Assembly: GCA_040217195.1 (NCBI GenBank)
Contig: JAVJNR010000009.1
Span: 64,001 to 128,000, forward strand
Direction: 5' to 3'
DNA: 64,000 bases
Source of the DNA: Leptospiraceae bacterium
GTDB taxonomy: Bacteria > Spirochaetota > Leptospiria > Leptospirales > Leptonemataceae
Below the pieces are notes generated by a model. It did not search any database. It saw nothing but the letters and a program-made list of their open reading frames with translations, and was not told the origin of the DNA. Made by a program: the position numbers and the translations under genes. Positions 28,957 to 63,088 of this stretch are shown piece by piece. Within the stretch, counting starts at the first letter, position 1, and the number at the start of each line of letters is the position of its first letter.

Positions 28957-28972
28957 CCCCCCGAACAGGGGG
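28957..28972 (+). promoter_or_regulatory. 7-2-7 palindromic box, copy 1
   Basis: ccccccg-aa-caggggg followed by ttt, in the divergent intergenic region upstream of cyclase 1. Confidence 0.75.
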
Positions 28973-28999
28973 TTTCGGAAGGCAGAAACTGTAATTCTG

Positions 29000-29028
29000 T
29001 TGCTGCCGGCATTGCAGCACATCATACT
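29000..29028 (+). promoter_or_regulatory. Candidate sigma70 promoter for cyclase 1
   Basis: TTGCTG-17 nt-CATACT, starting 43 nt after the start of box 1. Confidence 0.5.
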
Positions 29029-29039
29029 GCCGGCCCGTT

Positions 29040-32000
29040 ATGGAATGCCGGATCTTTTCACTTCGAAGCCACCGTTGCCGACGCTGGGTTCTAACGCTAT
29101 TTGTGTTTTCGCTCTTAGCCGGTTGTTCTCAAGTTGAGCAAGCACCCCGTTCTGTCCAAAAGGGGATCCTGGAAATTAAAGAAAACCGGCTGGACACAGA
29201 CGTTCTGGACCTAAATGGAGAATGGCATTTCCAGTCCGAATTTCTGGCTCCAGAGAAATGGAAAGAACGATTGCCTACCATCGGGGTTTCAGAATCCGAA
29301 GGACGTAATCTGCGATCTATCGAAGGCTCATGGACAATGGCCACCGAACTGGATCCTGCATTACCATCGGATGGACGTGCAAGCTATGCTCTGAAATGGC
29401 TTCTATCGGATCCAGAGAGCTACAACGATCTGGCCCTGAAAATTCCAACCATTAACACTTCGTATCAGCTTTTTCTGAACGGACAACTGCTGCTAGAGAT
29501 GGGAGATATTCAGTCCCGATCCAGAACTCTTACAGATGCGATGAGACCCAGGATCGTTCGAATCCCCGGTGAAATCCTGGAAAAAGAAAATGAAATCCTG
29601 ATAAACGTAGCCAACTACGGACACAGACAGGCCGGGCTCTGGTCCGCTCCCAGGCTGGGCAATGAAAGTTATCTGCGAAACCAGGATGAAAGATCCGTGG
29701 CCATGGGGCTGTTTCTGGCCGGTGGACTGGTTCTGATTGGTCTGTATCATCTGGGCCTATTCCTTACTCGAAGAAGCGAAAGTGCTCCTCTGTATTTCGC
29801 GCTTTACTGTATTCTGGTAGCACTCTGGGCCGCCCAGAGCGGGGAAAAGCTACTGGCCCGTCTTATTTCAGGCCTGGATGGTGAAACGGCACTTCGACTG
29901 GAATATATTTGTCTGTACCTTTCCGTGGCCTCCTTTCTCATGTTCGCCCGCCGATTGTATCGGGAGGATATGCCCCGCTGGCCGGCAAGATTTGTAGGAG
30001 CATTCGCACTTCTAAGTTCAGTCTCTGGTTTAGTTCTACCATTAAGGCAATTTGTCTGGACTCTCCCACCCATGCAGATCGCCGCTCTGGCAGCTGTAGC
30101 AATCTGTACTTTCTGGACTGTTCAGATTCTTCGAAGGAAAAGACTGGGAGCCAGACCGGTGGCTTTTTCGCTGGCGATCCTGGCGCTAACAGTAACCAAC
30201 GATGTACTGGTAGCTATGTCCATACTTCCTGGGATCTACCTGGCCCAGTACGGACTAATGATATTCATTGTAGGCCAATCGTTCGCCCTTTCCACACGTC
30301 TTTCCAATGCATTCAATGAACTGGAAGATCTATCCCGGGATCTGGAAACCAGAGTGGATCAGCGAACCGGCGAACTGGATGCATTGAATGAGCTTACACG
30401 ATCCGTAAACGAAAGCCAGGACCTGGGATTCATTGTAAGCCGTACATCGGACTTCATGGTGAAGCGTCTGGGTATGCGACGGATGTTTCTATTTATGATC
30501 CATACGCAGGACAACACCCTTCGTGGCAACGGAGGACAGATTGGAGATCTTCCAGAAGAAGACCGACAATTCTTCGAAGATCTTCGCACACCCATTGAGC
30601 CCGATCTGGGCACACTGTATCGCACCATTCAAAGAAAGAAGACACTATACCTTGATTTCAGCCGGGTACGTCCGCCGGAATCGATGATCGACCGTCGGGT
30701 GGTGGAACGGCTAAAGATGACCTCGGTGGTACAGATACCGGCCATGGTGGATGGCAAAGTGCTGGGAGTGGCCACCATAGATCCAGGAAGCAAGAAACTG
30801 AACCGACACGATTTGTCGCGCCTGGAGGCTGTAGTGGCGCAGATCTCTGGTGCCGTTCAAAAGCAATTTCTGCTTCAGGCCGTAGAAGAAGAAAACCAGG
30901 AGGTTAAAGAGTCCAAAGCCCTGGCGGATAAAGAACAGAAAAACAGCGAAATCCTGGCCGAACTGTCCCGGGTAGCCATTGAAAGCAAGGACATCGACTC
31001 CATTCTCATCGCCATGCAGAAACCGGTGACTGAGCTTGTAGGTCCACACGGAATCACCATCTATTTGCCGGACCCGGAAGCCACACTGTTAAGCGCCCGT
31101 TCCGTCATCCATACCGGCACTCTGGTTTCGCCGGAGGATCTACCGAACAGCATACGCTATGTTGCTCTGAAGCCTGAAAGCGGTACTCTACACCGATGCT
31201 TCTCCCGGGCAAAAACAATGTATCTACCGCGAATATCAAAAGCCTTTCTGGAAACCTCGCCGGTGGACCTGGCCATCCAAAGCCACTATCAGCTTACCTG
31301 GTGCTATCATATACCCCTGGTTGTAAACGATCGAGTGATTGGCATCGCATCTCTGGCGGGTCAGCAGCCGTCTTCTCTGGGTTTTCAGGACAAGCTATAT
31401 CTGGAAAGGATGATCGCCCAGGTGGCCGGCGCCATTCAAATGCAGGAGTTACTGCATACCATCGAACTGGAAAAGGAAACAGCCCATTTACTACAACGGG
31501 AATCCACGGCCCTGGCTGATTTTACCAGGTTGCTGAATCAAAGAGCGGATCTAAACTCCATTGTAGAAGAGGTGTGTCGCTACGCCGTGCAGTCCCTGGG
31601 ACTCCGGGGCGCCTTTATCGCTATAGTAGATGATGTAGAACATGAATTCCAGAGCATTGGCGGATCTGGTATAGATTACACCTATCAGCAGGAGATATTC
31701 GTCCGGGGATCCAGGGTATCCATAAATGCAGATGCTGGTCTGTACTTCAGTGTCTATCAACGAAAGAAGTCATTGTATCTTCCTCGAATTCCTTCCGGTC
31801 AGGGCCCGTTCAATGCTATGCTTGCGGATTTATTTGAGCTACAAAGCTTTGCGTTGATTCCTCTGCTTCTGGAAGACAGGGTAATTGGACTCATGGCAGT
31901 GGATCCCGGAAAACGGAAGCTTTCCAGGCAGGATCTGAAGCGACTGGAAACCTATGCTGATCATGTGGCAGGGGCCATAAACAATGCCAGTCTGTTCCAA

Positions 32001-34055
32001 CGAGTGGAGGAACAGCGAAGCAGCATCGAAGGACTGGCTCGAATTACGCGAATCGCAGCCTCCACAGACAATCTGGACGAAATCCTGGATCAGATCTTTG
32101 CCTATGTTCATAGAAGATACGGTATCGCATCCGGAGTGGTAATGCTACCCAATCCGGACGGAACCGAACTGGTAAGCTACCGGGTCTTTTCCTACGAGGA
32201 TCGGGACGCTCTGGTCCTGCACGATGCCTTTGCATACGCCCAGAACCTGCGGCTTCCCATCGCAGAATCCGGAGGGATCCTGGCCAGAACCTTCCTTCGC
32301 GGTAAACCCTTCTATGTGGCCGATGCCCGCCGGTTAGGTGTCTCAGACCGGGAGTATCCAGGGGCAGAGATGGACCGAGAGATAGCAAACAACCTAAAAT
32401 ACCGCGGCTATTTCAGCCTGCCCATGCACGTCAAAGAAGAGCCTGTGGCACTGTTAAATTTTACCGCATACAAAGAAAGCTTCAAACTGAATCGAAGCGT
32501 GCGAGAGGAATTAAAGACCCTTGCAGATCAATTGGCCGGCATCATTCGCACCAACAGCCTGGTCCGGGCTGTGCGCGAAGAAAGCAGAAGAGCCGCCCAG
32601 GCAAAAAAAGAAACCGATATTCTGGCCAGGCTTTCCAGGAAGGCCAACGAAACCACAAATCTGCAGATGCTCAGTCAGGGAGTGTTCGATGTACTTAGAG
32701 AAACCCTGAATCTGCAAAATCAGGGACTGTTTCTGGTAAACGACACCGATACAGAATTGGTTCCGGTACATTTTGACACCCATGAGAATATTCAGAACTG
32801 GGATACCGAATTTCGCGTACCTTTAAAGCCCGAAGGAGGCACTCTGTTCAAGACCTGGACCAGACGAAAATCCACCTATCTGCCCCGACTTCCGTTGCAG
32901 GGGGCGGCCTGGCCGGACCTGGAAATTGTGCGAAGGCTCAAGATTACCTCCGTTTTACAGATTCCACTGATTGTTACAGACCGGGTGGTGGCCATTTTTG
33001 CCTGCGGACCCACACGCTCCCTGTCCCGGGAAGAGATCCGATCCGCAGAAAGGTATTGCGAACAGATCGCCGGTGCAGTTCGAGTCATAGCTCTTTTGCA
33101 GGCCACTCAGGAAGCCAGGGAAGAGGCGGTGGTGGCCAAAGAGGAGGCTGAAGTGGCTCGCGCCGAATCCGATGCGCTTCTGGAAAATGTGCTGCCCAGC
33201 GCAGCCGCCCGGGAGCTCAAGGAAAGAGGACATGTGGAGCCCATCTATTATGATTCCGTTTCTGTGCTGTTTACAGACTTCGTGGGATTCACAAAAGCGG
33301 CGGCCAATTTGAGTCCGGCGGAACTCATCCAGGAGCTGGATGGCTGCTTTTCCCAGTTCGATGAAGTAAGCTGGCGCAACTCTATGGAAAAACTAAAGAC
33401 CATCGGCGATGCCTACATGTGCGCCGGTGGGCTTCCCGTGCCCAACGAAGGGCATGCCATCGATGCCTGCCTTACAGCTCTTGAGTTTAGAAGCTTTATG
33501 AAACAAATGGCCGAAGTCAAGCAACAACTGGGATTTCAATTCTGGCAGATTCGAATTGGTATCCACAGCGGTCCGGTAACGGCCGGGGTAATCGGTCAAA
33601 ACAAGTTCGCCTATGATATCTGGGGCGATACTGTAAACGTGGCCAGTCGAATGGAGTCATCCGGCAGCCCCGGAATGGTAAACATCTCCGGAGCCACGTA
33701 TGATCTGGTAAAAGATCTGTTCGAATGCGAGCATCGAGGCAAGGTGCAGGCCAAAGGAAAAGGAGAAATGGATATGTATTTTCTTCATCGAATCAAGCCA
33801 GAGCTTTCTGCAGATGAAGATGGTCTTCTGCCCAATGCAATGTTTGAGCTTGCACGCACCGATATGGACATGGAGGAGCTGGATGAACTGCGACGGGATG
33901 TGGCAGTCCTGAAGGGCGAAGTCTCCACGGAAGCAGCGGGGAATTCTAATAAGAATGGATCCAATTCCGGCCCTGACAGCCCGGGACGCAAAAAGAAAAA
34001 ACTGGCCGGGGCTCGTCCTCTTTCTGATATAGACGATAGTCGACAGGGATGGTAA
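29040..34055 (+). CDS. Giant adenylate cyclase 1: 7TM-DISM-type sensor, 5 GAF-like modules, class III cyclase, conserved tail
   Basis: Lipobox-like LAGC; 7TM; five repeats ending QISGA/QVAGA/HVAGA/QLAGI/QIAGA; FTDFVGFT, KTIGDAYM, YDIWGDTVNVASRMES. Confidence 0.92.
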   Translation: MECRIFSLRSHRCRRWVLTLFVFSLLAGCSQVEQAPRSVQKGILEIKENRLDTDVLDLNGEWHFQSEFLAPEKWKERLPTIGVSESEGRNLRSIEGSWTMATELDPALPSDGRASYALKWLLSDPESYNDLALKIPTINTSYQLFLNGQLLLEMGDIQSRSRTLTDAMRPRIVRIPGEILEKENEILINVANYGHRQAGLWSAPRLGNESYLRNQDERSVAMGLFLAGGLVLIGLYHLGLFLTRRSESAPLYFALYCILVALWAAQSGEKLLARLISGLDGETALRLEYICLYLSVASFLMFARRLYREDMPRWPARFVGAFALLSSVSGLVLPLRQFVWTLPPMQIAALAAVAICTFWTVQILRRKRLGARPVAFSLAILALTVTNDVLVAMSILPGIYLAQYGLMIFIVGQSFALSTRLSNAFNELEDLSRDLETRVDQRTGELDALNELTRSVNESQDLGFIVSRTSDFMVKRLGMRRMFLFMIHTQDNTLRGNGGQIGDLPEEDRQFFEDLRTPIEPDLGTLYRTIQRKKTLYLDFSRVRPPESMIDRRVVERLKMTSVVQIPAMVDGKVLGVATIDPGSKKLNRHDLSRLEAVVAQISGAVQKQFLLQAVEEENQEVKESKALADKEQKNSEILAELSRVAIESKDIDSILIAMQKPVTELVGPHGITIYLPDPEATLLSARSVIHTGTLVSPEDLPNSIRYVALKPESGTLHRCFSRAKTMYLPRISKAFLETSPVDLAIQSHYQLTWCYHIPLVVNDRVIGIASLAGQQPSSLGFQDKLYLERMIAQVAGAIQMQELLHTIELEKETAHLLQRESTALADFTRLLNQRADLNSIVEEVCRYAVQSLGLRGAFIAIVDDVEHEFQSIGGSGIDYTYQQEIFVRGSRVSINADAGLYFSVYQRKKSLYLPRIPSGQGPFNAMLADLFELQSFALIPLLLEDRVIGLMAVDPGKRKLSRQDLKRLETYADHVAGAINNASLFQRVEEQRSSIEGLARITRIAASTDNLDEILDQIFAYVHRRYGIASGVVMLPNPDGTELVSYRVFSYEDRDALVLHDAFAYAQNLRLPIAESGGILARTFLRGKPFYVADARRLGVSDREYPGAEMDREIANNLKYRGYFSLPMHVKEEPVALLNFTAYKESFKLNRSVREELKTLADQLAGIIRTNSLVRAVREESRRAAQAKKETDILARLSRKANETTNLQMLSQGVFDVLRETLNLQNQGLFLVNDTDTELVPVHFDTHENIQNWDTEFRVPLKPEGGTLFKTWTRRKSTYLPRLPLQGAAWPDLEIVRRLKITSVLQIPLIVTDRVVAIFACGPTRSLSREEIRSAERYCEQIAGAVRVIALLQATQEAREEAVVAKEEAEVARAESDALLENVLPSAAARELKERGHVEPIYYDSVSVLFTDFVGFTKAAANLSPAELIQELDGCFSQFDEVSWRNSMEKLKTIGDAYMCAGGLPVPNEGHAIDACLTALEFRSFMKQMAEVKQQLGFQFWQIRIGIHSGPVTAGVIGQNKFAYDIWGDTVNVASRMESSGSPGMVNISGATYDLVKDLFECEHRGKVQAKGKGEMDMYFLHRIKPELSADEDGLLPNAMFELARTDMDMEELDELRRDVAVLKGEVSTEAAGNSNKNGSNSGPDSPGRKKKKLAGARPLSDIDDSRQGW

Positions 34056-34099: not shown

Positions 34100-34780
34100 T
34101 TAAATCAACTGCAACTCCTGAACCTTTCGAACCAGCTCCGCCCGATTGTGTACCTCAAGCTTCTTGTATATACTCTTCACGTAATCGTGCACTGTATGAG
34201 GACTTAGCAATAAGAACTCGGCCACGGATTTGATAGTTTTTCCTCGCACCATAAGCTCCAGAATCTGACGCTCCCGATCGGTCAAATTTGGCCCGGAAAG
34301 AGGGGCCTTCTGAAAGGAGGACATGACTCGCAATGCAATGGTGGGAGTTATCATGGCTCCACCTCCCAGCACAACGTGAATGGCATCGGCCAGGCTGGAA
34401 AGTTCAGATTTAAGAAGGTAACCTTTTACTCCGTTCTGGATGGCCTGGAAAATAGCTTCATCCGAAGTCAGGTTGCTCAGAATGATAATAGGAAGGTCCG
34501 GTTGCTTCAATGCCAGAATTCCAGCCAGTTGAATGCCGCTTATTCCAGATAGATCAATATCCAGAAGCAATAGATCCAGTTCCAACCGTGTTTCATCGCG
34601 CAAGAATAACTCGGCTGAATTCCAGGAGTGCACAGGAGGACGAACCACCGAAATGGCAGTGAGCTCAGAGATTAGATGATCCCTGTATACAGGGTCATTT
34701 TCAACGACTCCGACTCTGGAAGCCTTACTTCCCGGCCCTTCATCTGGAGTATTTTGGTTATCCATTATTTGTTCTTTCAT
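34100..34780 (-). CDS. NarL/FixJ-family response regulator (REC + LuxR HTH)
   Basis: VVEND, LLDID, ILSN, GYLLKS; LTDRERQILEL...LSPHTVHDYVKSIYKKLEVHNRAEL. Confidence 0.95.
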   Translation of the reverse strand: MKEQIMDNQNTPDEGPGSKASRVGVVENDPVYRDHLISELTAISVVRPPVHSWNSAELFLRDETRLELDLLLLDIDLSGISGIQLAGILALKQPDLPIIILSNLTSDEAIFQAIQNGVKGYLLKSELSSLADAIHVVLGGGAMITPTIALRVMSSFQKAPLSGPNLTDRERQILELMVRGKTIKSVAEFLLLSPHTVHDYVKSIYKKLEVHNRAELVRKVQELQLI

Positions 34781-34847: not shown

Positions 34848-34863
34848 CCCCCTGTTCAGGGGG
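34848..34863 (-). promoter_or_regulatory. 7-2-7 palindromic box, copy 2 (perfect arms)
   Basis: ccccctg-tt-caggggg on +, i.e. ccccctg-aa-caggggg on -; upstream of regulator 1. Confidence 0.75.
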
Positions 34864-34884: not shown

Positions 34885-36774
34885 TTAATAGGGCAACTTC
34901 GCTCGAAAACAATAGGACTCTCCCAGAATTCGCACCCTGGTTACGCCGCCCATTTTACCGGCTCTTTTTCGAGCATGGACGGCTAAATGGGTCTCCGGTT
35001 CCTCCTCAGGCTCAGTCCTCGCGTAAATCGGAGCTGCGGCGGCCTCATTACGGATTCGATTCTTCTGACTCAGAAGCAGTGAATCCGATGTTGCAGCCAG
35101 CCGCCACACTGATTCGCCGGTACCGTATTTTAGATCATTCGTGCATAACTCCCGCGTAAGCTGAAGAAAGTCCATACGCAATGCATCATCACTTAGAGCT
35201 CGGTCCAGGGCATCTGGCCTTTCGCATTGAAATATCAGTTCTCGGCCTGAATCCGAATACCTTCGCAATAAGGAAAGCTGAATTCCAGTTGTAGGCTCCC
35301 TGGAGGCAAATTCCAGATCTTCCATGAATAGCAATTCACCGCGAAACAGATCATTTATCTCCGCTACCCTGGTCTGCAGCAATGATGAAGAATTTCCGGG
35401 TCCCAGTTCCCGGGACAACTGAATCTGCAAATCCACAAGCTTGCTTCCCAGAGTATCATGCAGATCATTTTCCAGGGACTGTCTTTGATGAATCAACGCT
35501 TCCTTACTTCTTTCCAGACGTATTCCAAGAGCCTTTTCGTTTTCCAGGCTTTCTTTATGCCTCTGTGCCACACCAATGCCCTGGAACAGTCCAAAGCTTA
35601 CAAATGCTAAAACAGCCAGATCCGCCGCCCCTTCTCGGCTCTGCCAGTTCTGAAAAATGGCCAGCAAACCGAATATACAGACGATGACCATCCCGAATCC
35701 CATGATCCGGGTGCTTCCTGCTTCCTGAAACGATCGAATCAAGACAATGTATGCACAAATAAGCAATACCGGACCGGCCACAAATAAATAGTATCCGTAC
35801 ATCAACATTGCCAGAACCGCCGTATCTGCAATCAGGGTTACTACAAAGGCTCCACAGACCGAAAGCAAGATAGCAAAAGGGATGCGGCCCAGGGCCGATG
35901 GAAACAGTCCGCGAAAATACATGAGCATTAACGGTGGACTCAAGATATTCAGAGTCATATTAAATCGATATTGCCACTCCCAGTTCAACTCCGGCCATAT
36001 ATCATGGATGGTCCTTTCTCCCAGCAAAGGAATGCGAAGAGCAAAACTAAGACATAGAAATGCAAATACCAGATAGGCCTTTTCTCTTCTTTGCATCCAG
36101 AACAGGAAAAGATTATAGAAAGCGATGGCACCCAGAAAGCCCGTGGCCAGGATTTCCAGAAAGTCCCTTCTGTTTTGAAGAGTCTTAATCTTATCTGGCC
36201 AACCTATTTCGAAGGCTGCCCGTAAGCCGCCGCGAAACGTATGGAAATTGGCAATATGCAGGATTATTTCAGTTCGGGGTTTCCGCGGCGTATATTCAAA
36301 GTAAAGTTCACCCCTGGATGGTTCCGTATTTGTTTCGCTTGTGCCTGGATGTCCATCACTGGCAAGAAGTTGTCCATCCACGTATACCCGGGCCGAAGTT
36401 AGCTGCTGGGAGAGAATAAATGCAATTGGTCGACCTTGAGGAAGATCCAGCAAGGTTCGATAGCTTGCATAACCCTTTCCAGTGGTTCCTGGTAGCCGGG
36501 TCCAGGGTCTCATGCCCTGGACTCTAAAATCCGGCTTCAGTCGTTCCGGGGCCGAAGACTGGATTGCCCCGGGTTCAATGTAGCGATTCCAGAAAAAATC
36601 CCAGACAGGCTCCACAACGGAGTATCCCTGGTGCTGCAGAGTATTGAGGTGCACTTTGGAAACTGGGTCACCCTGGATGGAAGCTTCCGAAGGCAATTTC
36701 CCCTGGCAATGAAGAGAGCTCAACACCAGCACGGACAGTAAGAAGCATTTGAGAAAGAAATTGAACACCTGCAC
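34885..36774 (-). CDS. 7TM-DISM-type sensor kinase, HisKA_3-like, with degenerate ATPase domain
   Basis: HIANFHTFRGG extracellular motif, 7TM, H-box LENDLHDTLGSKL, N-box-like ELCTNDLKYG, no G1/G2 boxes. Confidence 0.85.
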   Translation of the reverse strand: MQVFNFFLKCFLLSVLVLSSLHCQGKLPSEASIQGDPVSKVHLNTLQHQGYSVVEPVWDFFWNRYIEPGAIQSSAPERLKPDFRVQGMRPWTRLPGTTGKGYASYRTLLDLPQGRPIAFILSQQLTSARVYVDGQLLASDGHPGTSETNTEPSRGELYFEYTPRKPRTEIILHIANFHTFRGGLRAAFEIGWPDKIKTLQNRRDFLEILATGFLGAIAFYNLFLFWMQRREKAYLVFAFLCLSFALRIPLLGERTIHDIWPELNWEWQYRFNMTLNILSPPLMLMYFRGLFPSALGRIPFAILLSVCGAFVVTLIADTAVLAMLMYGYYLFVAGPVLLICAYIVLIRSFQEAGSTRIMGFGMVIVCIFGLLAIFQNWQSREGAADLAVLAFVSFGLFQGIGVAQRHKESLENEKALGIRLERSKEALIHQRQSLENDLHDTLGSKLVDLQIQLSRELGPGNSSSLLQTRVAEINDLFRGELLFMEDLEFASREPTTGIQLSLLRRYSDSGRELIFQCERPDALDRALSDDALRMDFLQLTRELCTNDLKYGTGESVWRLAATSDSLLLSQKNRIRNEAAAAPIYARTEPEEEPETHLAVHARKRAGKMGGVTRVRILGESYCFRAKLPY

Positions 36775-37790: not shown

Positions 37791-37806
37791 TCCCCTGTTC
37801 AGGTGA
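37791..37806 (-). promoter_or_regulatory. 7-2-7 palindromic box, copy 3, overlapping the stop codon of kinase 2
   Basis: tcccctg-tt-caggtga on +; upstream of regulator 2. Confidence 0.62.
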
Positions 37807-39892: not shown

Positions 39893-40031
39893 AAGGCCAG
39901 AGTAGCATTCTGCCCGGCTAAAGGTTCGCCAACAGCGGCCTGTACTTACATCGTAGCGGAGCAATGTACCACACAAACGATACAGGTTTTGAATTAATCG
40001 ATGAAACCGACTCAATCTGTCCTATTCCTTA

Positions 40032-40047
40032 TCCCCTGAACAGGTGG
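40032..40047 (+). promoter_or_regulatory. 7-2-7 palindromic box, copy 4
   Basis: tcccctg-aa-caggtgg then ttt; divergent region between kinase 2 and cyclase 2; TTGCCA at 40075. Confidence 0.75.
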
Positions 40048-40190
40048 TTTTGGCCAGCTACACCCTGGAATCGATTGCCAGTCCATCGAAAATAGGATCG
40101 GGATGGTAGGAAATGCTAAAACCGGTAGGGGGTACCCACCTCAGGGTGGTAGATCCGGACCCGAAGTGCACCCTGGAAAAAGCAAATCCA

Positions 40191-49145: not shown

Positions 49146-49161
49146 CCCCCTGAATTGGGGG
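49146..49161 (+). promoter_or_regulatory. 7-2-7 palindromic box, copy 5
   Basis: ccccctg-aa-ttggggg then tttt; TTGCCA at 49189. Confidence 0.7.
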
Positions 49162-49291
49162 TTTTCTTCGACTACATGCTGGATTCGGTTGCCAGTCTTT
49201 CGAAAATAAGGGATTGATGGCAATAAATGTTAGAAGTGGCAAATGGGCCGCTTTTAATCGGGGCCCATACGATACCAGGACAGTAGAGCCG

Positions 49292-55200: not shown

Positions 55201-56182
55201 AGCTGAGGTGGCCAAAGAGGAGGCAGAAGTAGCCCGGGCCGAGTCCGATGCTTTGCTGGAGAATGTGCTGCCCAGCGTAACCGCAAAAGAGCTAAAAGAG
55301 TCCGGCCGAGTGGAACCTGTGTACTTTGACAACGTTTCCGTGATGTTCACAGACTTTGTAGGATTCACAAAGGCAGCGGCCCGGCTGACTCCTGCCGAGC
55401 TTATCCAGGAGCTGGATGGTTGCTTTTCGCAATTCGATGAGGTATCCCGCCGAAACAATCTGGAAAAGCTAAAGACCATTGGTGATGCCTATATGTGCGC
55501 GGGAGGCCTGCCGGTGCCCAACGAAGGTCATGCTATCGATGCCTGCTTGACCGCCCTTGAATTTCGCAGCTTCATGAATCAGATGGCAGCAGTAAAAGGA
55601 CAGCTGGGCTATGAATTCTGGCAGATTCGCATTGGCATACACAGCGGGCCGGTTACGGCCGGCGTCATTGGCCAGAACAAGTTCTCCTACGATATCTGGG
55701 GCGATACGGTAAACGTGGCCAGCCGCATGGAATCCTCGGGCAGCCCGGGAATGGTTAATATTTCAGGTGCCACCTACGAACTCGTCAAAGATCTATTCCA
55801 ATGCGAATATCGAGGCAAAGTTCAGGCCAAGGGAAAGGGCGAACTGGACATGTACTTTGTGCATAGAATCAAGCCGGAACTTTCTGCAGATGAGGGAGGA
55901 CTGCTTCCCAATGCCATGTTTGAGCTTGCACGGACGGATATGGACATGGACGAAATCAATGCCATGAAATCAGAAATCCATGAGAATCATGCCGCCTCCA
56001 GGTATCCAGATAAATCGGAACCTGATACAGGGTCCACACAGGCACAGAATAATACCTCCACTGGTAAGTCGAAAGCCTCAAGCGGCGACCAAAAAGCCGA
56101 TCGGCGCGCCGGGTCGGAAAGAAGAAAACATGCGGGGGCCCGACCACTGTCCGAACTGGACAAAGAAAGACAGGGCTGGTAA
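49292..56182 (+). CDS. Giant adenylate cyclase 3: 7TM-DISM-type sensor, 8 GAF-like modules, class III cyclase, conserved tail
   Basis: ORF 49214-56182; METISQ start at 49292 matches the cyclase 2 start; lipobox-like AIGC; sensor and catalytic domains nearly identical to cyclase 2. Confidence 0.92.
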   Translation: METISQKYSRSGNTKGTGFQLADLLLASILFWLPKRIVSLLAGIPARLRLFFPVRSFMSAAIPGPLFLIALFSMVAIGCFQSARPGPPVARDGVLDLRQWDFESNGSANLSGDWKLVWGQFASPNSPLRNAYDARVPRSWDHLGIEGVSGRGFGTLQLVLQGLPETTSGLTISLPSMTGAYRLYCGESLIAATGTAGNSYETTTPERIPRVAILPTECIKENQAVLTWHVANFRHRTGGGAAELTSTMTIGLPAQTMSSVYRRHLADLSLLAIAFIMALYHLVYWLFRRDDVQLVLFSAVAALFCVRITGTQTLLQQAFPSADFYEIEFMLEYLGYYLLVPVFFSYLRAWYPGEFNRFVSYTLWIIGGLFSATVLFGPVDFYSNYIRYYESVSLAAFLYTLIALGFAIVRKRRGAWILNAGVWIIIGTATHDILGNMGVLQSETYLAQFGFLTFLLSQSSLMAALFSDAFRRAEDLSENLEKKVVSRTGELAREKDRAETARATALAEQLESEILADLAQQANRGTDAKSLLDPLARVLTARLGADRLGLWVARDDGYLELVAGFADGQPTDPKQYSDVVARISTGEKGGILARGYREGRIIYVPRVNRKLLENSPVDREIQSTWKFDWFVNLPLVVDRGSVGMIAASGPRAKRIPRKEIRFLERAAATVASATQKQMLLERIEEEKDAAKKLERETRALAEFTRRLNERQDLNSIVSEVCQYSVNSMALRGAYVTVINEKEREFQSIGGYGLDYNDQQMAFVRSSRVPLSQESGLIYSTYRRKKNVHLRRLRQSSSPVDEYAREILQLNSIAHFPLLLEGNVIGVLAVDPGRRKLSQKDLGKLQNYADQVTGAINNAALLQQVQQQRMSIEGLARITETAASTDNLDEILNQIFHYVHSRFGILSGLVMVPNEDRTELQSIKVHTFEDKESLQLAAAGEYAEGLSVAINLQGGTLARTFLRGRPFYVPDVSRFMETGRNYPGSEIDRDIFQNLRYKGYLALPMTVNKEPVALLNFTSYGADLRLSRADREELGTLADQLAGIIRSRQLAENLSREKKRAEQEKAENEVLANLARRANEGAGIEDILIETSRITEAHCGVSRLGLYLVDTEKNTLELHSFLSSGEVNDERPVPDIIKSIPIEFESGSLAAVVQRMRKMFLPSIRPPFLEASPVDAAQVEFHKFDWFLQAPLMTGGSMIGVLAFVGSQDHRPGLRQRQLMGRIVDQIAGAVQSKQLLDQVEDARRDSEALAELARRADAGADLFEIGELVLDYARAKCGVDTLGLYTVNRELNRLEVQAFARKGPIEPGSVLPDELRFPPLFEQTGSLSQVVSRGRPLYMDRLPERLKRKMSDHDRKNLEFMQFDWFLDIPMIAQEEVIGVIAFAGPARQKLSESERNFLERITVQVSGSVKNRQLLKQVESERNVARTLQKETEGLNQLLKRIAPMEDLEEIMEEVMAFSKDAYDIGVYSLYSVDNERKQMQALAMNFPDHIGPEDRQYIMETPVPLDFRGGAFTIAYRRSPRYTYFKNAKQEGTSPIEEFVSKKYDLTNMVVYPLMEGDQVMVFLNFLTYNKEGLNRDQLSQLSILSDQISGIIRMNGLIREVKEQSVRTEAARKETDMLAELSRKANEATDLEAVSQTLFDHLRESLELDDFCLFVLEPETRLLHAAAWDTSAAEDPETRRWLETTHHKLEPDVGTLYRTYSKKKTTYLPRFPEAFFAPGDRIIVEKLKLTSALQVPLLIQDEVIGFLTSGPRRRLTREEITSVERFCNQVAGAIRATALLNSTAQARQRAENARRETEALAVLSREANETVNLENLSQTVFHLMRQTLDLENFTLFIVDDQDSELLPAKWDTVQDVSEWKRNFRVPLQPDAGTLHRTWSRKRTLYLPAFPEEFGGWADQEIVGNLKIESVLQIPLVVSDRVVGIFACGPTRKLNREEIRSAERYIQQIAGAVRIIALLQATQEAREEAEVAKEEAEVARAESDALLENVLPSVTAKELKESGRVEPVYFDNVSVMFTDFVGFTKAAARLTPAELIQELDGCFSQFDEVSRRNNLEKLKTIGDAYMCAGGLPVPNEGHAIDACLTALEFRSFMNQMAAVKGQLGYEFWQIRIGIHSGPVTAGVIGQNKFSYDIWGDTVNVASRMESSGSPGMVNISGATYELVKDLFQCEYRGKVQAKGKGELDMYFVHRIKPELSADEGGLLPNAMFELARTDMDMDEINAMKSEIHENHAASRYPDKSEPDTGSTQAQNNTSTGKSKASSGDQKADRRAGSERRKHAGARPLSELDKERQGW

Positions 56183-56328: not shown

Positions 56329-56344
56329 CCCCCTGAACAGGGGG
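56329..56344 (+). promoter_or_regulatory. 7-2-7 palindromic box, copy 6 (perfect arms)
   Basis: ccccctg-aa-caggggg then ttttt; TTGCGC at 56372. Confidence 0.75.
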
Positions 56345-56538
56345 TTTTTGCTCCCGGACCAGGAATTGGTATTGCGCATCCCTTACCGTAGTATCTTCTA
56401 ATGCCCCTGAGCAAGGAAACTGGTTTGCTAGCGCCGGGGGATAACCTATTGCTTTCTGTCCAGGATCAGTAACGTTGCGAAAGAGCCGGCGCAGGCAATC
56501 CTTTTTGCCGGACAAAGAGCCACAGAGGAGAATTGGGA

Positions 56539-57015
56539 ATGTCAATACTGACCGATGAAATGATAGGGATCTGGAATGGTCCTGTAATGGGAGCAATCTG
56601 CACCGTAAACTCCCGACTGGAACCGTTCTATACAAGAGTCTGGGGAGCTACCGGGAAAGCCGGAGAAGCAACCATGAATTGTTTTATTCCGGAATCCCTT
56701 TCCGCTCGGCCACTGGCCGATCTCAAAGAACGCCCGAGGCTAGCAATTAACATGGTGGATGCTACCAATTTTTCCGGATACCAATTCAAAGGCCCCTTTC
56801 TGCAATCGATGAAAGCCACCCCCGAGGAAGAAGAGTACCTGGCAGGTATCAAGGCAAATACTCTTCATGTAGTAAGTCAGTTCTTTGGAGCGTCCGCCGG
56901 AGCAGGCTGGGAACGCTATATAATCAGTCCTGCCATTCGCCTGGAAATACAAGTAGAAGAAATCTACAACCAGGCCCCCGGCATGATGACCGCAGAAGAG
57001 AGGAAAATAGTATGA
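56539..57015 (+). CDS. Divergent PNPOx-like split-barrel protein
   Basis: GPVMGAICTVNSRLEP, YQFKG, VEEIYNQAPG; GAGGAG RBS before ATG 56539; ATGA overlap with the next gene. Confidence 0.7.
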   Translation: MSILTDEMIGIWNGPVMGAICTVNSRLEPFYTRVWGATGKAGEATMNCFIPESLSARPLADLKERPRLAINMVDATNFSGYQFKGPFLQSMKATPEEEEYLAGIKANTLHVVSQFFGASAGAGWERYIISPAIRLEIQVEEIYNQAPGMMTAEERKIV

Positions 57016-57422
57016 AGTTGCCCGAAGAGATCAAACCAGCGCTACAGGGTGTCATCCCGGCTACCATCGCCACATGCGATCCATCCGGCAATCCGAATGC
57101 CACTATATTGTCCCAGGTTTTCCCTGTAGACGATGAGCATATTGCATTGTCCCATCAATTCTTTACCAAGACCTACCAGAACATTCGAACACACCCAAAA
57201 GTACACATACAGGTGGTGCATCCTGCCGATTGCACCCCCTGGTTACTGGAAGCGGAATTTGTAAGAGAAGAAACGGAAGGTCCTTTGTTCGAACAGATGG
57301 ATATGCAACTGGAAGCCATTGCTTCCATGTCCGGAATGGCCGATGTATTTAAGCTACACTCCGCTCTTGTTTGCAAGGTCCTGAGCGCATCCATTCTCGA
57401 AGGAGCCCAGAGGCCTGCATGA
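57012..57422 (+). CDS. Pyridoxamine 5'-phosphate oxidase-like (FMN-binding split barrel) protein
   Basis: GVIPATIATCDPSGNPNATILSQV, IALSHQFFTKTYQNI, GPLFEQM, IASMSGMADVFKL. Confidence 0.85.
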   Translation: MKLPEEIKPALQGVIPATIATCDPSGNPNATILSQVFPVDDEHIALSHQFFTKTYQNIRTHPKVHIQVVHPADCTPWLLEAEFVREETEGPLFEQMDMQLEAIASMSGMADVFKLHSALVCKVLSASILEGAQRPA

Positions 57423-57423
57423 C

Positions 57424-60400
57424 ATGAGCTTTGAATCCGAGATCAGCCCGGACGAGGATTCCGCCGTTTGCGTCAACCAGCTGCGGCAGCAACTGGCTCG
57501 CAAGGAAAGAGAGTTCCAGGTGATCCATGAGCTTTCGTCTGAAATCAATACTACGCTGGATCCGGATCGAATCTTCAAGGTTTCCATGGATGGCCTGGAC
57601 CAGGCTTTCGATTTTCACCATTCTCTGATTCTGCTAACTGATGAAGCCGGTAAGAATCTGGAAGTTGTGGCCAGCCATGGTTATCCGGACCCGGGCCTGG
57701 GAGCCACACTGCCGGTGGGCATGGGCGTCATTGGTGTTGCCGCAAAAAGAAAGAAGCTACTGAGATCGGTGGCGATAACCTACCAATCCCTGTATGCTCG
57801 GATGACCATGATGGGAAAGGCAGACCAGGTGAAGAACCGGAGTCCCATGCCCGGGCTGGAAAATGCGGCCAGTCAGATGGCCATTCCACTCATTGTACAG
57901 GATGCTTTGATCGGAATCTATGCGGTGGAAAGCCCGGCGGTGGGGGCCTTTGATTCTCTGGATGAGCAACTTCTTTCCATCATCGGAAGCATGGTGGGTG
58001 CCGCCATAGCAAATGCAAGAACCTATCGGGACGTGGAGGATTTAAGCAGAAACCTGGAACAAAAGGTTCAGCGCCGCACAGAAGAGCTCAATTCTCTAAA
58101 TACACTTACGCGTACAGTAAACCGAAGTCATCAGCTAGAAACGATAGTCCGGGACACAGCGCAATACATGGTAAGACATCTGGCCGTGCGAAAGATGTTT
58201 CTCTTTCTGTTGAACTCTGAAGAAAATGAAATTCGGGGAATGGCAGGCTATTTAGAGACTCTCAGTGATGAACAGCAAGACCTACTAAAAAACTTTCGAG
58301 CCCGGGTGGAGCCAGAGCTGGGCACGTTGTACCGTACTATTCAGCGAAAAAGGACCGTGTACCTGGATCTCACTCGAATCAAGCAGGCCCGCTCTGCAGC
58401 AGACCGGTTTGTTATAGAACAAATTGGACTGAGCAGCGTCATCCAGATTCCTGTTATGGTGAGCGGCCGCGTTCTGGGAGTGGCCTGTATGGATCCTGGC
58501 GGGTTTCGCATGGATCGTGCCGCACTGCGCAAACTGGAATCCGTGGTAGCCCAGATTGCAGGCGCTGCAGACAACGCCTATCTTCTGGAACAGGTAAGCG
58601 CACAGAAACAGGATGCCTTACGAGAACGGGCGGATAGTGAAATTCTGGCAGAAGTGGCCCGCAGAGCAAACGAGGCCCGCAGCAGCGAGGAAATCCTGCA
58701 ATTGATGGCCGAACATGTACTCGGACATTGTGCTGTGAACACCATATCCCTGCGATTGGTAGATCCCACCGGCGAACTGTTGGAAACTCATTCTGTGATA
58801 GAAGACGGCATCCGAACCAGCCTGGACGATTTGCCCGCAGAAATCCGGTCTATACCGCTAAAATATGAAAGCGGAAGTCTGTACCAGGTCTTTTCCAGGA
58901 ATCGCAAGATGTATCTGCCTCGCATCCGGCCCTCCTTTGTGCAGAATTCCCCGGTGGATCAGACCATTCATGCCCATCACGGATTTGAGTGGTTTTTGAA
59001 CGTTCCTCTGTCAATCCAGGGCAGTGTCATCGGCATTTTCAGTTTCGCTGGCAAGAAAGCAAACCTGCCGGACTTTAGAGCGCGATTATTAATGGAACGA
59101 ATGGTTGCACAGGTGGCCGGAGCTGTTCATAGCAAGCAGCTACTGCTGCAGGTTCAGGAAGAAAGAAACATTGCCACACGACTCCAGGAAGAGACAGAAG
59201 GCCTCAATCAATTGCTCAAGCGAATCGCCAGCATTGAAGATATCCAGGAATTGATGAATGTAGTCCAGAAGTATGTTGCGAAGGCATACGATATCCATTA
59301 CTACTCTCTCTACTCCATGGACCCGGAAAACCAACAGGTAGTGCCGACCGCGCTGAACATTCCCGAATGGATTTCAGGAGATGACCTGGAGCATATTCGC
59401 ACGACTCCCGTGCCACTAAATGTTCGATTTGGAGCTCTAAGCGTGGCCTACCGCAGAGTCCCGAATTACACATACTACAGGTCTCTTCGCCCATCCATTG
59501 CTTCCGACATTGAACGATTCATTATCGAAAAATACAGGATGAACAATCTGGTGGTCTACCCATTGATGAATAACAATGAGCCCATCGCTTTCCTGAATTT
59601 TATGACTCACACTGAGGGAGGGCTCAATCGGGAACAACTGAATCAACTCTCTATTTTGAGCGATCAGATCTCCGGCATTATTCGGATGAATGGACTACTT
59701 CGCGAAATAAAAGAAGAAGGGCGAAAGACCGAACAGGCCCGGGCCGAAACCCAGGCTCTGGCCACTCTTTCAAGGCATGCCAACGAAAGCACAAACCTGG
59801 AAAGTATTTGCCACGCTCTTTTTACCTATCTGGAAGATACCCTCAGTCTTACGAACTTCTGTCTATTTATGGTGGATCAGCCCCGGTCCGAGATCTATGT
59901 CGTTGCAGGTGCCGGCGCTGGGTGGTCCACTCACATTCAGGAGTGGACCCGGGATCTGAGAATTAAGTTGGAACCAGAATCCGGCACCCTTTATAGCACG
60001 TATAGTAGGCAAAAACCCATGTACCTTCGGCGAATTCCTGGAAACATGGATTCAGCTGTGGATCTGACCATAGTAGAAAAATTCAATCTTGATTCTATAT
60101 TGCAGGTGCCTCTGGTCATCCAGGGAAATACCATCGGAATACTGGCCTGCGAACCATCCCGAAGGCTCCGCCCGGAAGATATTCAATCCGTTGAACGATT
60201 TTGTAATCAGATCGCAGGCGCCATGCGAACCATGGCTTTGCTTCAGATCACCCAGGAGGCCCGGGAAGAAGCCGTGGTGGCCAAAGAGGAAGCGGAGCAG
60301 GCCCGGGCCGAATCCGATGCACTCCTGGACAATGTGCTTCCGGCTGCTGCAGCAAGAGAACTCAAAGAAACCGGCCGAGTCGAACCCATATACTTTGACT

Positions 60401-61269
60401 CCGTTTCAGTGCTTTTCACAGACTTCGTAGGATTCACCAGGGCGGCCGCCAACCTGACACCTGCCGAACTGATCCAGGAACTGGATGGTTGCTTTTCTCA
60501 GTTCGACGAAGTAAGTCGCAGAAACAACCTGGAAAAACTGAAAACAATCGGCGATGCCTATATGTGTGCAGGCGGTCTCCCGGAACCCGGTAATTCCCAT
60601 CCTGTGGACATCTGCCTGGCTGCACTTGAGCTACGAGCGTTCATGCAGCAAATGGCAGAAGTGAAGCAACAACTGGGATTTCAATTCTGGCAGATTAGAA
60701 TCGGAATTCATACTGGCCCGGTTACCGCCGGCATTATTGGACAGAATAAATTTGCATACGATATCTGGGGAGATACCGTCAACGTAGCCAGCAGAATGGA
60801 GTCCTCCGGAAGTCCCGGTATGATCAACATCTCTGGATCCACGTATTCGCTGGTCAAAAATCTGTTCGAATGCGAACACCGGGGCAAAGTAGAGGCAAAA
60901 GGTAAAGGCGAAATGGATATGTATTTTCTGCATCGTATCAAGCCCGAACTTTCTGCCGATGAAGAAGGATTGCTACCAAATGCAATGTTTGAAATGGCTC
61001 GCACCGATCTGGATAGAGATGAGATCCATTCGCTCAAGCAGGGTCCCTCAGAGACTCCCGGATTTCGATCTTCTGAAAGTTACAGCGAAGGGGCTACCGA
61101 TGAGATAGCTCATTCAGCCACAAATTGCGGGTTTCAGACCTCTTTGAATCAGTCTGATAACAGCGTAGAGAGTGGACAGTGTATTTCGGACAGAAAGCAA
61201 TCCATCCGAAAAAAGCCAGCAGGAGCCCGGCCGCTATCCGAGATCGATGCGGACCGCGAGGGCTGGTAA
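57424..61269 (+). CDS. Soluble adenylate cyclase 4: 5 GAF-like modules, class III cyclase, conserved tail
   Basis: No TM segment; first GAF is canonical (VASHGY, GVIGVAA, SQMAIPL, AVES, AFD), followed by four family-specific modules; intact catalytic motifs. Confidence 0.92.
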   Translation: MSFESEISPDEDSAVCVNQLRQQLARKEREFQVIHELSSEINTTLDPDRIFKVSMDGLDQAFDFHHSLILLTDEAGKNLEVVASHGYPDPGLGATLPVGMGVIGVAAKRKKLLRSVAITYQSLYARMTMMGKADQVKNRSPMPGLENAASQMAIPLIVQDALIGIYAVESPAVGAFDSLDEQLLSIIGSMVGAAIANARTYRDVEDLSRNLEQKVQRRTEELNSLNTLTRTVNRSHQLETIVRDTAQYMVRHLAVRKMFLFLLNSEENEIRGMAGYLETLSDEQQDLLKNFRARVEPELGTLYRTIQRKRTVYLDLTRIKQARSAADRFVIEQIGLSSVIQIPVMVSGRVLGVACMDPGGFRMDRAALRKLESVVAQIAGAADNAYLLEQVSAQKQDALRERADSEILAEVARRANEARSSEEILQLMAEHVLGHCAVNTISLRLVDPTGELLETHSVIEDGIRTSLDDLPAEIRSIPLKYESGSLYQVFSRNRKMYLPRIRPSFVQNSPVDQTIHAHHGFEWFLNVPLSIQGSVIGIFSFAGKKANLPDFRARLLMERMVAQVAGAVHSKQLLLQVQEERNIATRLQEETEGLNQLLKRIASIEDIQELMNVVQKYVAKAYDIHYYSLYSMDPENQQVVPTALNIPEWISGDDLEHIRTTPVPLNVRFGALSVAYRRVPNYTYYRSLRPSIASDIERFIIEKYRMNNLVVYPLMNNNEPIAFLNFMTHTEGGLNREQLNQLSILSDQISGIIRMNGLLREIKEEGRKTEQARAETQALATLSRHANESTNLESICHALFTYLEDTLSLTNFCLFMVDQPRSEIYVVAGAGAGWSTHIQEWTRDLRIKLEPESGTLYSTYSRQKPMYLRRIPGNMDSAVDLTIVEKFNLDSILQVPLVIQGNTIGILACEPSRRLRPEDIQSVERFCNQIAGAMRTMALLQITQEAREEAVVAKEEAEQARAESDALLDNVLPAAAARELKETGRVEPIYFDSVSVLFTDFVGFTRAAANLTPAELIQELDGCFSQFDEVSRRNNLEKLKTIGDAYMCAGGLPEPGNSHPVDICLAALELRAFMQQMAEVKQQLGFQFWQIRIGIHTGPVTAGIIGQNKFAYDIWGDTVNVASRMESSGSPGMINISGSTYSLVKNLFECEHRGKVEAKGKGEMDMYFLHRIKPELSADEEGLLPNAMFEMARTDLDRDEIHSLKQGPSETPGFRSSESYSEGATDEIAHSATNCGFQTSLNQSDNSVESGQCISDRKQSIRKKPAGARPLSEIDADREGW

Positions 61270-61426: not shown

Positions 61427-62419
61427 TTGAAAGCAGCAGTGATTGATCGTTTCGGCGATGCGGAGGTTCTGCGCATTGCCGAGGATTTACCAGGGCCTGA
61501 AATCCAGGCAAACCAGGTTCTTGTTCGAGTAGCGGCCGCCGGGATCAACCCGCTGGATCTCCGAACTCGTGAAGGGGATCTTCGCTGGATTCGCGGCAAT
61601 CGCTTTCCCATGATTCTGGGCAATGACCTTTCTGGCATTGTGGTGGAATGCGGAAAGGATGTCTCTCAATTTCATCCGGGAGATCTTGTATTTGGCATGA
61701 TAGATCCCAATCCGGTCCTCGCCTGGAATGGATTCACTCAATGCGGCGCGTATGCTGAATTTGCAGTAGCCCGGGCAGATACCCTGGCCCATAAACCGGA
61801 GAGCATCTCGCACGTGGAGGCAGCCTCCATTCCCCTCGTTGCACTCACTGCGTATCAGGCCCTGGGCACAGACTTGAAGAATAAAGACGTACTGATCAAT
61901 GGAGCATCCGGTGGCGTGGGGACCTTTGCGGTTCAGCTGGCACGAGCCGCCGGCGCCCGGGTTACAGCTTTTTGCAGTGAGCCCAATCGGGAGGCTGTGC
62001 GCGATCTGGGGGCCCGGGAGGTATATGATTATCGAAAACAATCCGTTACAGACCTGCCCGGCCAATTCGACGTAATCTATGACGTGGCAGTCACCCTCAA
62101 GTATTCAGAATGCCACGAGCTACTGAAACCCGATGGCCGATTCATCTCTAACCTGATCAGCCCGTCGAACTTCCTATCCACTATTCTACAACCTGCGCTT
62201 AAGCCATTTTGCCATGGCCGCATAAACACCTACGCCTTCGTAAAGCCGTCAGGTCAGGAACTTGAAGAAATCTCCAAACTGATTGAGCTGGGTCACATTC
62301 GGCCGGTTATCGACCGAGTCTTCGATTTGCAAGATGTGGCGGCAGCCCATGAGCATAGTCAGAAAACCAGGGGTTACGGAAAAGTAGTCCTGAATGTGGC
62401 CGAAAACCGGGTGGACTGA
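61427..62419 (+). CDS. NAD(P)H-dependent oxidoreductase, MDR/Qor-like
   Basis: AAGINPLD, LGNDLSG, GAYAEF, LTAYQAL, INGASGGVG, IRPVIDRVF, GKVVL; TTG start. Confidence 0.92.
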   Translation: MKAAVIDRFGDAEVLRIAEDLPGPEIQANQVLVRVAAAGINPLDLRTREGDLRWIRGNRFPMILGNDLSGIVVECGKDVSQFHPGDLVFGMIDPNPVLAWNGFTQCGAYAEFAVARADTLAHKPESISHVEAASIPLVALTAYQALGTDLKNKDVLINGASGGVGTFAVQLARAAGARVTAFCSEPNREAVRDLGAREVYDYRKQSVTDLPGQFDVIYDVAVTLKYSECHELLKPDGRFISNLISPSNFLSTILQPALKPFCHGRINTYAFVKPSGQELEEISKLIELGHIRPVIDRVFDLQDVAAAHEHSQKTRGYGKVVLNVAENRVD

Positions 62420-62475
62420 CAGTTTTCTTGAGGCCTGCAGTAGCCGCAGACCGGATTAGTTAGGCAGAACCGCAC

Positions 62476-62491
62476 TCCCCTGATCAGGTGG
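62476..62491 (+). promoter_or_regulatory. 7-2-7 palindromic box, copy 7
   Basis: tcccctg-at-caggtgg then tttt; TTGGCA at 62519. Confidence 0.68.
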
Positions 62492-62596
62492 TTTTATTCA
62501 TTTTCAGATTCGAATGCATTGGCATGGAAAATGATGCCCGCAAAACCAGTATGACCCGGGGAGCGTAATCCTGGGGCAAGGAGCAGTGCATCGAAA

Positions 62597-63088
62597 ATGG
62601 CGAACCAACAAATGAAAGAATACCACTTCGTTACAATCTGGAGAACAAAAGCTCCTCTTTCGGACGTTTACAGGGAAATCCATAGCAGCGACTCCTGGCC
62701 GGAGTGGTGGCCCGCGGTCAAAAAGGTAGAAACACTGAGCAAGGGAAATGATCAGGATCTGGGGACTGTGCGAAGGATGACCTGGAAAGGGGCTCTGCCC
62801 TATTCCCTGGCTTTTGACATGAAATCCACCATCGTAGAGCCGGAGAAGGTTCTGGCCGGAGATGCCTTTGGCGAACTGGAAGGGCACGGCCGATGGGAGT
62901 TCAACCGCGAAGGGAATGACACTATCATTCGCTACGACTGGAAGGTTTACACAACAAAAGCCTGGATGAACCTGTTCGCACCCATTGCAAAGCCTATCTT
63001 TCAATGGAATCACGACCATGTAATGGAAGGCGGGGCCCGGGGGCTGAGCAAACGCCTGGGCGTGGAAGTTACCGACGAAAGTCCCTGA
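62597..63088 (+). CDS. SRPBCC (START/Bet v1, polyketide cyclase-like) protein
   Basis: YHFVTIW, WPEWWPAV, LPYSL, GELEGHGRW, YDW, KPIFQWNHDHVM. Confidence 0.88.
   Translation: MANQQMKEYHFVTIWRTKAPLSDVYREIHSSDSWPEWWPAVKKVETLSKGNDQDLGTVRRMTWKGALPYSLAFDMKSTIVEPEKVLAGDAFGELEGHGRWEFNREGNDTIIRYDWKVYTTKAWMNLFAPIAKPIFQWNHDHVMEGGARGLSKRLGVEVTDESP

Follow-up and report, generated by a model that had tools for sequence, protein, structure and literature searches.

A candidate autoregulated NarL-type regulon with giant GAF cyclases and a kinase-like sensor in Leptospirales

The window of this study is a stretch of 64,000 nucleotides from a Leptospiraceae bacterium (GenBank assembly GCA_040217195.1, contig JAVJNR010000009.1, positions 64,001 to 128,000 of the forward strand). 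It carries four very long genes for class III adenylate cyclases (cyc1 to cyc4) next to two gene pairs for a NarL-type response regulator (RR1, RR2) and a kinase-like membrane sensor (S1, S2), and a short palindromic DNA box recurs seven times among them. What holds such a locus together? An earlier note on positions 28957 to 63088 saw one circuit in which related seven-transmembrane (7TM) sensors feed both the synthesis of cyclic AMP (cAMP) and the transcription of the cyclases. The open reading frames (ORFs) and lengths that it gave (cyclases of 1671, 2866, 2322 and 1281 residues) are correct, and Pfam recovers both pairs of 7TM sensor and regulator with receiver (REC) and GerE domains, a regulator remnant and an SRPBCC gene. 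The reading that we regard as probable is an autoregulated signalling regulon of Leptospirales, tandemly amplified at this site, in which a gated NarL-type switch drives the cyclase genes.

The box and the conserved core module

The seven copies of the box lie at 28958..28971 (box 1, + strand, 26.8 bits, between the divergent genes cyc0 and cyc1), 34849..34862 (box 2, − strand, 27.1 bits, upstream of RR1), 37792..37805 (box 3, − strand, 19.9 bits, upstream of RR2 and overlapping the stop codon of S2), 40033..40046 (box 4, + strand, 23.1 bits, between the divergent S2 and cyc2), 49147..49160 (box 5, + strand, upstream of cyc3, its flank being a duplicate of the cyc2 promoter), 56330..56343 (box 6, + strand, 28.2 bits, upstream of an operon of two split-barrel genes and cyc4) and 62477..62490 (box 7, + strand, 24.1 bits, upstream of the SRPBCC gene). 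These are the places named before; a dehydrogenase gene of the locus and S1 have no box. One IUPAC form fits six of the seven copies, against 0.05 expected in shuffled sequence. With a matrix derived from 43 sites of other genomes, nine sites of at least 19.9 bits are found in the genome of 4.6 Mb, the next one reaching 14.0 bits, and seven of the nine are the window boxes. All nine stand upstream of genes; at least four are flanked by divergent genes, and none lies between convergent ones.

The box belongs to a module that is conserved beyond the window. A profile of the cytoplasmic part of the sensor scores at least 184 bits in 46 of 156 genomes of the order (hand count), 19 of them from the family of the window, taken as Leptonemataceae (f1), and 27 from the other family, taken as Leptospiraceae (f2); below this group the matches drop to longer hybrid proteins. 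Next to a sensor of this clade we found 43 regulators, 41 with enough upstream DNA, and a box of at least 15 bits precedes the transcription unit of 39 of the 41 under a matrix built without sites of the genome in question (the filter overlooked one regulator, which has a variant pocket). Of 40 genomes, 30 have a cyclase no more than 3.5 kb away, and 27 have a GAF cyclase there. In genus g33, sampled through 18 of its 20 high-scoring genomes, all 18 loci hold a box and a three-gene operon of GAF cyclase, regulator and sensor, the box with at most two mismatches in 17. The compact three-gene form is also present in loci attributed to Leptospira sp., and other related loci come from Leptonemataceae and Leptospiraceae. 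The components co-occur in relatives.

Judged from its sequence, the window is a locally amplified form of this core of box, GAF cyclase, NarL-type regulator and sensor. RR2, the end of S2 and the cyc2 promoter recur in decayed form between cyc2 and cyc3, and the window therefore grew by tandem duplication; the third copy (48782..49061, − strand) comprises the helix-turn-helix (HTH) end of a regulator (77% identical to RR2 at the DNA level) and, behind it, a copy of the S2 end. In three sister genomes of the same genus (G035, G036 and G037) two or three giant cyclases occupy the same place, beside an ebo-type cluster. The term island can thus not be kept in its mobile sense, and a mobile genomic island was rejected: the neighbourhood is the same in the three sister genomes, a tRNA scan of the window found no tRNA, and no integrase is among the 18 window ORFs scanned with Pfam.

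Presence of the box follows the sensor clade. By hand count, the core pattern is present in 37 of the 46 genomes that have the clade versus 9 of the 110 that lack it, and a looser full pattern occurs in 40 of 46 versus 25 of 110. Seven of the nine core-pattern matches in clade-less genomes were examined; five stay below 15 bits with their flanks, and two are strong and lie in fragmented genomes. The box is absent from 20/20 loci of sister or related systems, most of whose regulators have another recognition helix.

The box, GC-rich and palindromic, frequently has T's behind it, and three window copies stand shortly after a stop codon. It could accordingly be taken for an intrinsic terminator or a repeat element, and the cluster for a mere tandem duplication of genes common in the family; duplication is evident, and with 46 class III cyclase domains in the genome, cyclases as such are common here. 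We consider this very improbable. A terminator is disfavoured because the sites lie upstream of genes, several of them between divergent and none between convergent genes, and because 6 of 43 training sites and 3 of 7 window sites show a recurrent change in one arm only, which disrupts the stem and is compensated in none of them. The centre of the box is conserved, its presence tracks the regulator clade, its spacing to a downstream TTG is fixed, and the Rfam scan was empty, with no match to the box.

Some points speak against the regulon at the level of the box. The training sites of the matrix were picked by their likeness to the core of the window boxes, and related genomes are not independent of one another; several of the boxes in the window are duplicates, those before cyc2 and cyc3 being duplicates of each other; and 10 of the 40 genomes have no cyclase within 3.5 kb, some of the contigs being short. 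Away from the module, 14 of 20 further regions around pattern matches contain a strong box, and 10 of these 14 unlinked boxes precede a gene for a cyclase, a GAF protein, a kinase, a receiver or a split-barrel protein. The link between box and cyclases is therefore more than local duplication. The shared operator suggested for the window has gained from this comparison, since the box behaves as expected of the regulator's operator, precedes cyclases and does so at unlinked loci as well; we infer that it is a candidate operator of the NarL-type regulator.

For five of five plus-strand targets in the window a TTG starts exactly 28 nt after the box, as it does for 10 of 39 such targets overall. 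This TTG may represent a −35 element and the regulator may be an activator. A scan for sigma-70 promoters upstream of cyc1 gave no site, and the sigma-54 spacing fits only one of the five plus-strand targets. In the favoured regulon, a signal received by the sensor would change the state of the regulator, which would bind the box before its own gene and before GAF cyclase genes and most likely activate them.

Boxes were also seen at sites of other character, the first two described here being those of the nine genome sites that lie outside the locus. At C10:302774-307863 (L281) a box precedes an operon of a methyltransferase, an MpaB-like oxygenase, a fusion of a cyclic nucleotide-binding (cNMP) domain with a methyltransferase, and a P450; it is found as well in G037 and G049, and in only 3 of 15 orthologous regions. 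The cNMP-domain gene gives no good support for a cAMP effector, in view of this scarcity of the box and of the replacement of its phosphate-binding Arg. At C3:200020-204128 (L282) a box stands before genes for an MBOAT acyltransferase and an SGNH-like protein, with two flagellin-like genes pointing the other way at a distance of about 600 bp. In two sister genomes, G037 (L284) and G036 (L285), genes for predicted lipoproteins have strong boxes upstream of them at an unlinked locus.

The sensor and its regulator

S1 (34885..36774, − strand) consists of a 7TMR-DISM input, a HisKA_3-like dimerisation and histidine phosphotransfer (DHp) domain with H439 and a degenerate ATPase fold, in which the N-box is kept, Q570-x-N572 stands in place of the G1 box and G2 is lost. 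S2 (37799..40015, − strand) is its paralogue (about 50% identical). The cytoplasmic part folds as DHp plus ATPase domain in a model with a predicted local distance difference test score (pLDDT) of 85.6, which matches kinase cores. The His is present in 24/24 sensor rows of the alignment, and in 22/22 sensors the His, the N-box (Glu, Asn, Lys, aromatic), the Q-x-N, a W and an R are invariant. The G1 box DxGxG is replaced by the invariant Q-x-N, whose Asn aligns with the G1 Asp of DesK. Conserved G2 lid glycines are missing in the clade (4 of 26 QxN rows pass a loose test for GxG), the HisKA_3 phosphatase Gln is absent, and no Pfam or NCBIfam kinase model matches the ATPase domain. With G1 and G2 both absent, the description of the sensors as pseudokinase-like was apt, and in these two boxes the sensor departs from a canonical HisKA_3 kinase.

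The partner regulators, RR1 (34100..34780, − strand; E27-N28-D29 pocket, phospho-acceptor D74 and K124 kept) and its paralogue RR2 (36945..37727, − strand; 73% identical over the aligned part), consist of REC and GerE HTH domains, and the acceptor Asp, the Ser/Thr and the Lys are invariant or nearly so among the regulators. In quick trees the sensor clade forms one branch (support 100) and the regulator clade another (96).

A search at E 0.001 places the sensor module in a wider family of 1293 clusters, most of which lack G1, have G2 and carry an Asp right after the N-box Asn. Ordinary ATPase domains of this genome have kept the G1 Asp in 44 of 51 cases and have an Asp after the N-box Asn in 0/51. 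Among the best 150 relatives, 47 are hybrids in which a kinase and a receiver precede the sensor module, usually followed by a sister regulator. Retention of the His, loss of G1 and G2 and the position of close sisters behind kinase and receiver favour a signal-gated phosphotransferase or sequestering partner of the PhyT type. PhyT, the closest tested precedent by analogy, is described in the accessible part of its report as a membrane sensor that retains its His, has a degenerate ATPase domain, passes phosphate on and holds its regulator back (PMC5898713). The sensor of the window would likewise make no phosphate of its own; it would relay phosphate from the receiver of another kinase, or hold or drain the regulator as PhyT does. 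Within the favoured regulon, gating by relay or by holding and draining appears to us somewhat the more probable course.

Other findings count against a sensor without kinase activity. The invariance of the N-box exceeds what a dead domain would require. Stand-alone sisters without G1 but with G2 pair with regulators with no kinase in the chain; the sensor family could therefore be active. A profile search of the genome gave two matches only and found no hybrid donor of the sensor family. The same regulon may be served by an active, non-canonical autokinase, in which the Asp of the N-box region and the Gln/Asn pair rebuild the nucleotide pocket, with basic residues in place of the glycine lid, and which may use ATP weakly or another nucleotide. 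The position after the N-box Asn neighbours the G1 Asp in GHKL folds, and in most of the 150 relatives an Asp at this position goes together with a missing G1 Asp. Asn in place of the G1 Asp occurs in VanS and ThkA according to the available part of a study that also cites a kinase using GTP (10.1101/2022.12.12.520123). Against an autokinase stands the loss of both G1 glycines and of the G2 glycines in the sensor clade, unlike in the sisters, and a lid region that is variable in length and poorly modelled. We regard an active autokinase as unlikely, albeit deserving of consideration.

The receiver pocket raises a further difficulty for phosphate transfer. In 20/20 regulators the metal-binding Asp is replaced by Asn, a replacement that none of the other receivers in this genome shows; 58 of 67 receivers here have the Asp. 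Phosphorylation of the regulator may for this reason be weak or even absent. The regulator could in that case work without phosphorylation, the sensor acting by binding and release or reading the state of the regulator as DivL does (PMC4211667, in the part of that work available), and the conserved His and Asp would be relics or interface residues. Absence of the phosphatase Gln agrees with this. The invariance, or near invariance, of His, acceptor Asp, Ser/Thr and Lys does not, nor does the occurrence of the same Asn pocket in regulators that follow intact hybrid kinases, and we hold a phosphorylation-free switch to be quite improbable.

G1-less, G2-bearing modules (L314-L321, L331, P0030-P0150) are widespread in the order and often end hybrids of 7TM input, kinase and receiver, with a NarL-type regulator next to them. 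At one of these loci (L319) a different palindrome lies upstream of the regulator.

Cyclases, the R-x-G-W tail and neighbouring genes

All four cyclases contain a PF00211 catalytic domain and GAF repeats, and three have a 7TMR-DISM input by Pfam. In cyc1 (29040..34055, + strand; assigned by Pfam and a repeat profile) the 7TMR-DISM domain is followed by 5 GAF units, the cyclase domain, a linker and an RQGW tail, whose codons and stop occupy 34041..34055 (+ strand). The same order is seen in cyc2 (40113..48713, + strand) with 11 GAF units and an RQGW tail and in cyc3 (49214..56182, + strand) with 8 GAF units, a linker with DRR/ERR repeats and an RQGW tail. The soluble cyc4 (57424..61269, + strand) has 5 GAF units, cyclase domain, linker and a REGW tail. 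The repeat profile separates about eleven GAF types in shuffled order; weak profile matches point to the GAF chain of a cyanobacterial cyclase (1ykd) and to a Leptospira GAF (5w10). An NKFDE-like motif was not seen in the alignment of 29 GAF repeats. A single-sequence model of four GAF units (pLDDT 37) was not used. A fifth, small membrane cyclase, cyc0 (27386..28735, − strand; PF00211), lies outside the span of the earlier note and diverges from box 1 at 220 bp; its membership is uncertain.

Both metal-binding Asp residues, the Lys of KTIGD, the Asp of YDIWGD and the Asn/Arg pair are intact in the four cyclases, as had been claimed, and in cyc0, and the closest PDB matches are adenylate cyclases; from these residues the window cyclases should make cAMP from ATP. 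Once induced, they would do so under inputs of their own, which differ, and under variable GAF arrays. The idea that related 7TM sensors feed both synthesis and transcription fails where it implies a shared input. The genome holds 24 input domains of the 7TMR-DISM type, and in a quick tree with weak deep branches those of the sensors, of cyc1 and of cyc2/cyc3 fall into three separate lineages. A single ligand common to sensors and cyclases is therefore not supported, as these inputs are not mutual nearest among the 24.

Tandem DRR/ERR repeats were noted in cyclase linkers (window 56072-56179; L011-L016, L041, L046) and, in similar form, at the ends of two GAF kinases (L017, L220); they are reminiscent of arginine-rich motifs that bind c-di-GMP. 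A five-GAF cyclase of G041 (L048) has a long C-terminal extension that looks globin-like by eye. At window 9869-12376 lies a further 7TMR-DISM cyclase, with a C-terminal receiver domain and without box or tail.

All four cyclases end in R[EQ]GW, 83-111 residues past the catalytic domain. Among 2524 ORFs of at least 250 residues, this R-x-G-W end is confined to the four cyclases and a Lon protease, against 0.16 expected; the tailed Lon (C7:42596-44989; L104, L105) is one of two in the genome. Its orthologues in f1 (best 30 loci of 38 genomes) end in R-x-x-W in 23 of 26 complete ORFs (23 of 25 with a stricter filter) and in R-x-G-W in 20, after unrelated linkers, compared with R-x-x-W in 0/34 Lons of the other family and of other spirochaetes. 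Among the fetched loci, the tail is present on 19 of 37 GAF cyclases of f1, from 7 genera, and on 0/20 of f2. It also ends a metallo-hydrolase with two apparent cNMP-binding domains (L174 in G006) and a distant 7TM cyclase (L207 in G033). In genus g11 Lon ends in R-x-x-W without the Gly, and 0/4 listed cyclases are tailed. On the cyclase tree the tail requires 8 changes, at least 4 of them forced by well-supported branches, be they gains, losses or both. No box was found near Lon in 27 loci, nor a conserved small neighbour that would point to an adaptor. The f1 Lon orthologues share, besides, an unusual conserved stretch at the N-terminus.

By analogy, the most likely role of the tail is that of a short recognition tag common to Lon and the cyclases, through which it would limit or place these enzymes. 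The clade-specific tail of Caulobacter Lon is a degron, as far as the accessible text of the report goes (10.1101/2020.06.12.149492). A degron that limits the lifetime of the enzyme is a possible function here, somewhat short of an even chance, and the same weight may be given to a docking or localisation tag, docking at the cell pole being as plausible as a degron because of the precedent of LprA. Several facts do not fit a tail with a general role in the regulon: 18 of the 37 f1 GAF cyclases have none, genus g19 has a tailed Lon and untailed cyclases, and the tail is unlike the published consensus of Lon degrons, which is His-ended in the part of the source at hand (PMC11986505). A more far-reaching proposal joins both halves of the locus. 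In Leptonemataceae an R-x-G-W code would couple Lon to cAMP enzymes, a sensor whose ATPase pocket has given up autophosphorylation and still binds a nucleotide, possibly cAMP, would gate the autoregulated NarL-type switch, and the resulting loop of transcription, synthesis and destruction would produce pulses of cAMP; the tail would there serve as a degron on both Lon and its substrates, or as a docking tag, gained or lost several times on signalling proteins. We regard this joint proposal as doubtful.

The remaining genes of the locus are of varying relevance. Two flavin-barrel genes had been noted; they lie upstream of cyc4 and form an operon with it. The second (57012..57422, + strand) is a PNPOx protein by Pfam (PF01243), and the first (56533..57015, + strand) is PNPOx-like by an Atlas feature and by structure matches to PNPOx-like clusters, without a Pfam match. 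The cassette of two split-barrel genes and cyc4 recurs in G036, G040 and L075. The oxidoreductase of the earlier note is a zinc-type dehydrogenase/quinone oxidoreductase (61427..62419, + strand), which is present and probably no member of the system; it has no upstream box, is not found at this place in sister genomes and has 9 relatives in the genome. The SRPBCC gene (62597..63088, + strand) is linked to the locus in G035, G036 and G037 and preceded by a box in G035 and G037. A complete ebo-type cluster (window 17479-24692; models for EboA, EboC and EboE match) adjoins the locus, also in the sister genomes. A tandem repeat at window 6878-7597 gives a repetitive ORF upstream of a chemoreceptor gene and is possibly a non-coding repeat array.

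Relation to known systems and meaning

We found no description of the operon, the box or the tail among the leading matches in the literature searched, supplementary gene tables aside. The three-gene core, the hybrid-kinase sisters, the two unlinked box sites and the tail shared with Lon are new relative to the earlier note.

As in NarQ/NarL and DesK/DesR, a HisKA_3-type sensor with ATPase fold and a REC-GerE regulator are encoded by adjacent genes with a palindromic operator candidate; unlike there, the window sensor lacks G1 and G2 and its family has an Asp after the N-box Asn, and the receiver pocket contains Asn. With PhyT/PhyP of Sphingomonas melonis (PMC5898713), to whose kind ChpT and Spo0B also belong, the sensor shares the design of a membrane-anchored, kinase-like protein with a periplasmic sensor part, its His kept, a degenerate ATPase domain and a gene beside that of the regulator. 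It differs from PhyT in its HisKA_3-like DHp, its 7TMR-DISM input and its invariant N-box, and its partner is a DNA-binding NarL-type regulator with an E-N-D pocket, whose output would be cyclase genes.

In cyclases of the CyaB1/CyaB2 type a class III catalytic domain follows GAF domains in tandem. The window cyclases share this order and differ in other respects: their 5 to 11 GAF units belong to about eleven types in shuffled order, the input is of the 7TMR-DISM or the split-barrel kind, a C-terminal tail is present and an NKFDE-like motif is lacking. The tail resembles the degron of Caulobacter Lon and His-ended degrons as a clade-specific, free C-terminal extension on Lon that follows a variable linker, ends in a conserved residue and has its like on substrates (10.1101/2020.06.12.149492; PMC11986505). 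Unlike the Lon degrons in the accessible parts of these sources, R-x-G-W does not end in His, occurs in a single one of the families searched and is also carried by signalling enzymes. In Leptospira, LprA is a class III cyclase localised at the pole whose cAMP tunes swimming in a saprophytic Leptospira (PMC9043183), and LvrB is a receiver-controlled kinase (PMC13269768; PMC5863495). Both LprA and the Lvr proteins differ from the window proteins by their described architecture, and operator, sensor clade and tail are not part of their descriptions in the portions available.

Genomes of Leptospirales encode dozens of adenylate cyclases, whose individual control has been little explored. The locus would provide the first named candidate operator, regulator and target set for a cyclase of this order. 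The tail on Lon and cyclases is a prediction of a new proteolytic or localisation signal. The sensor clade, as part of a large family unseen by Pfam kinase models, asks what a histidine kinase needs in order to work, and if the joint proposal made above is true, the wider G1-less family would be a new class of two-component transmitter.

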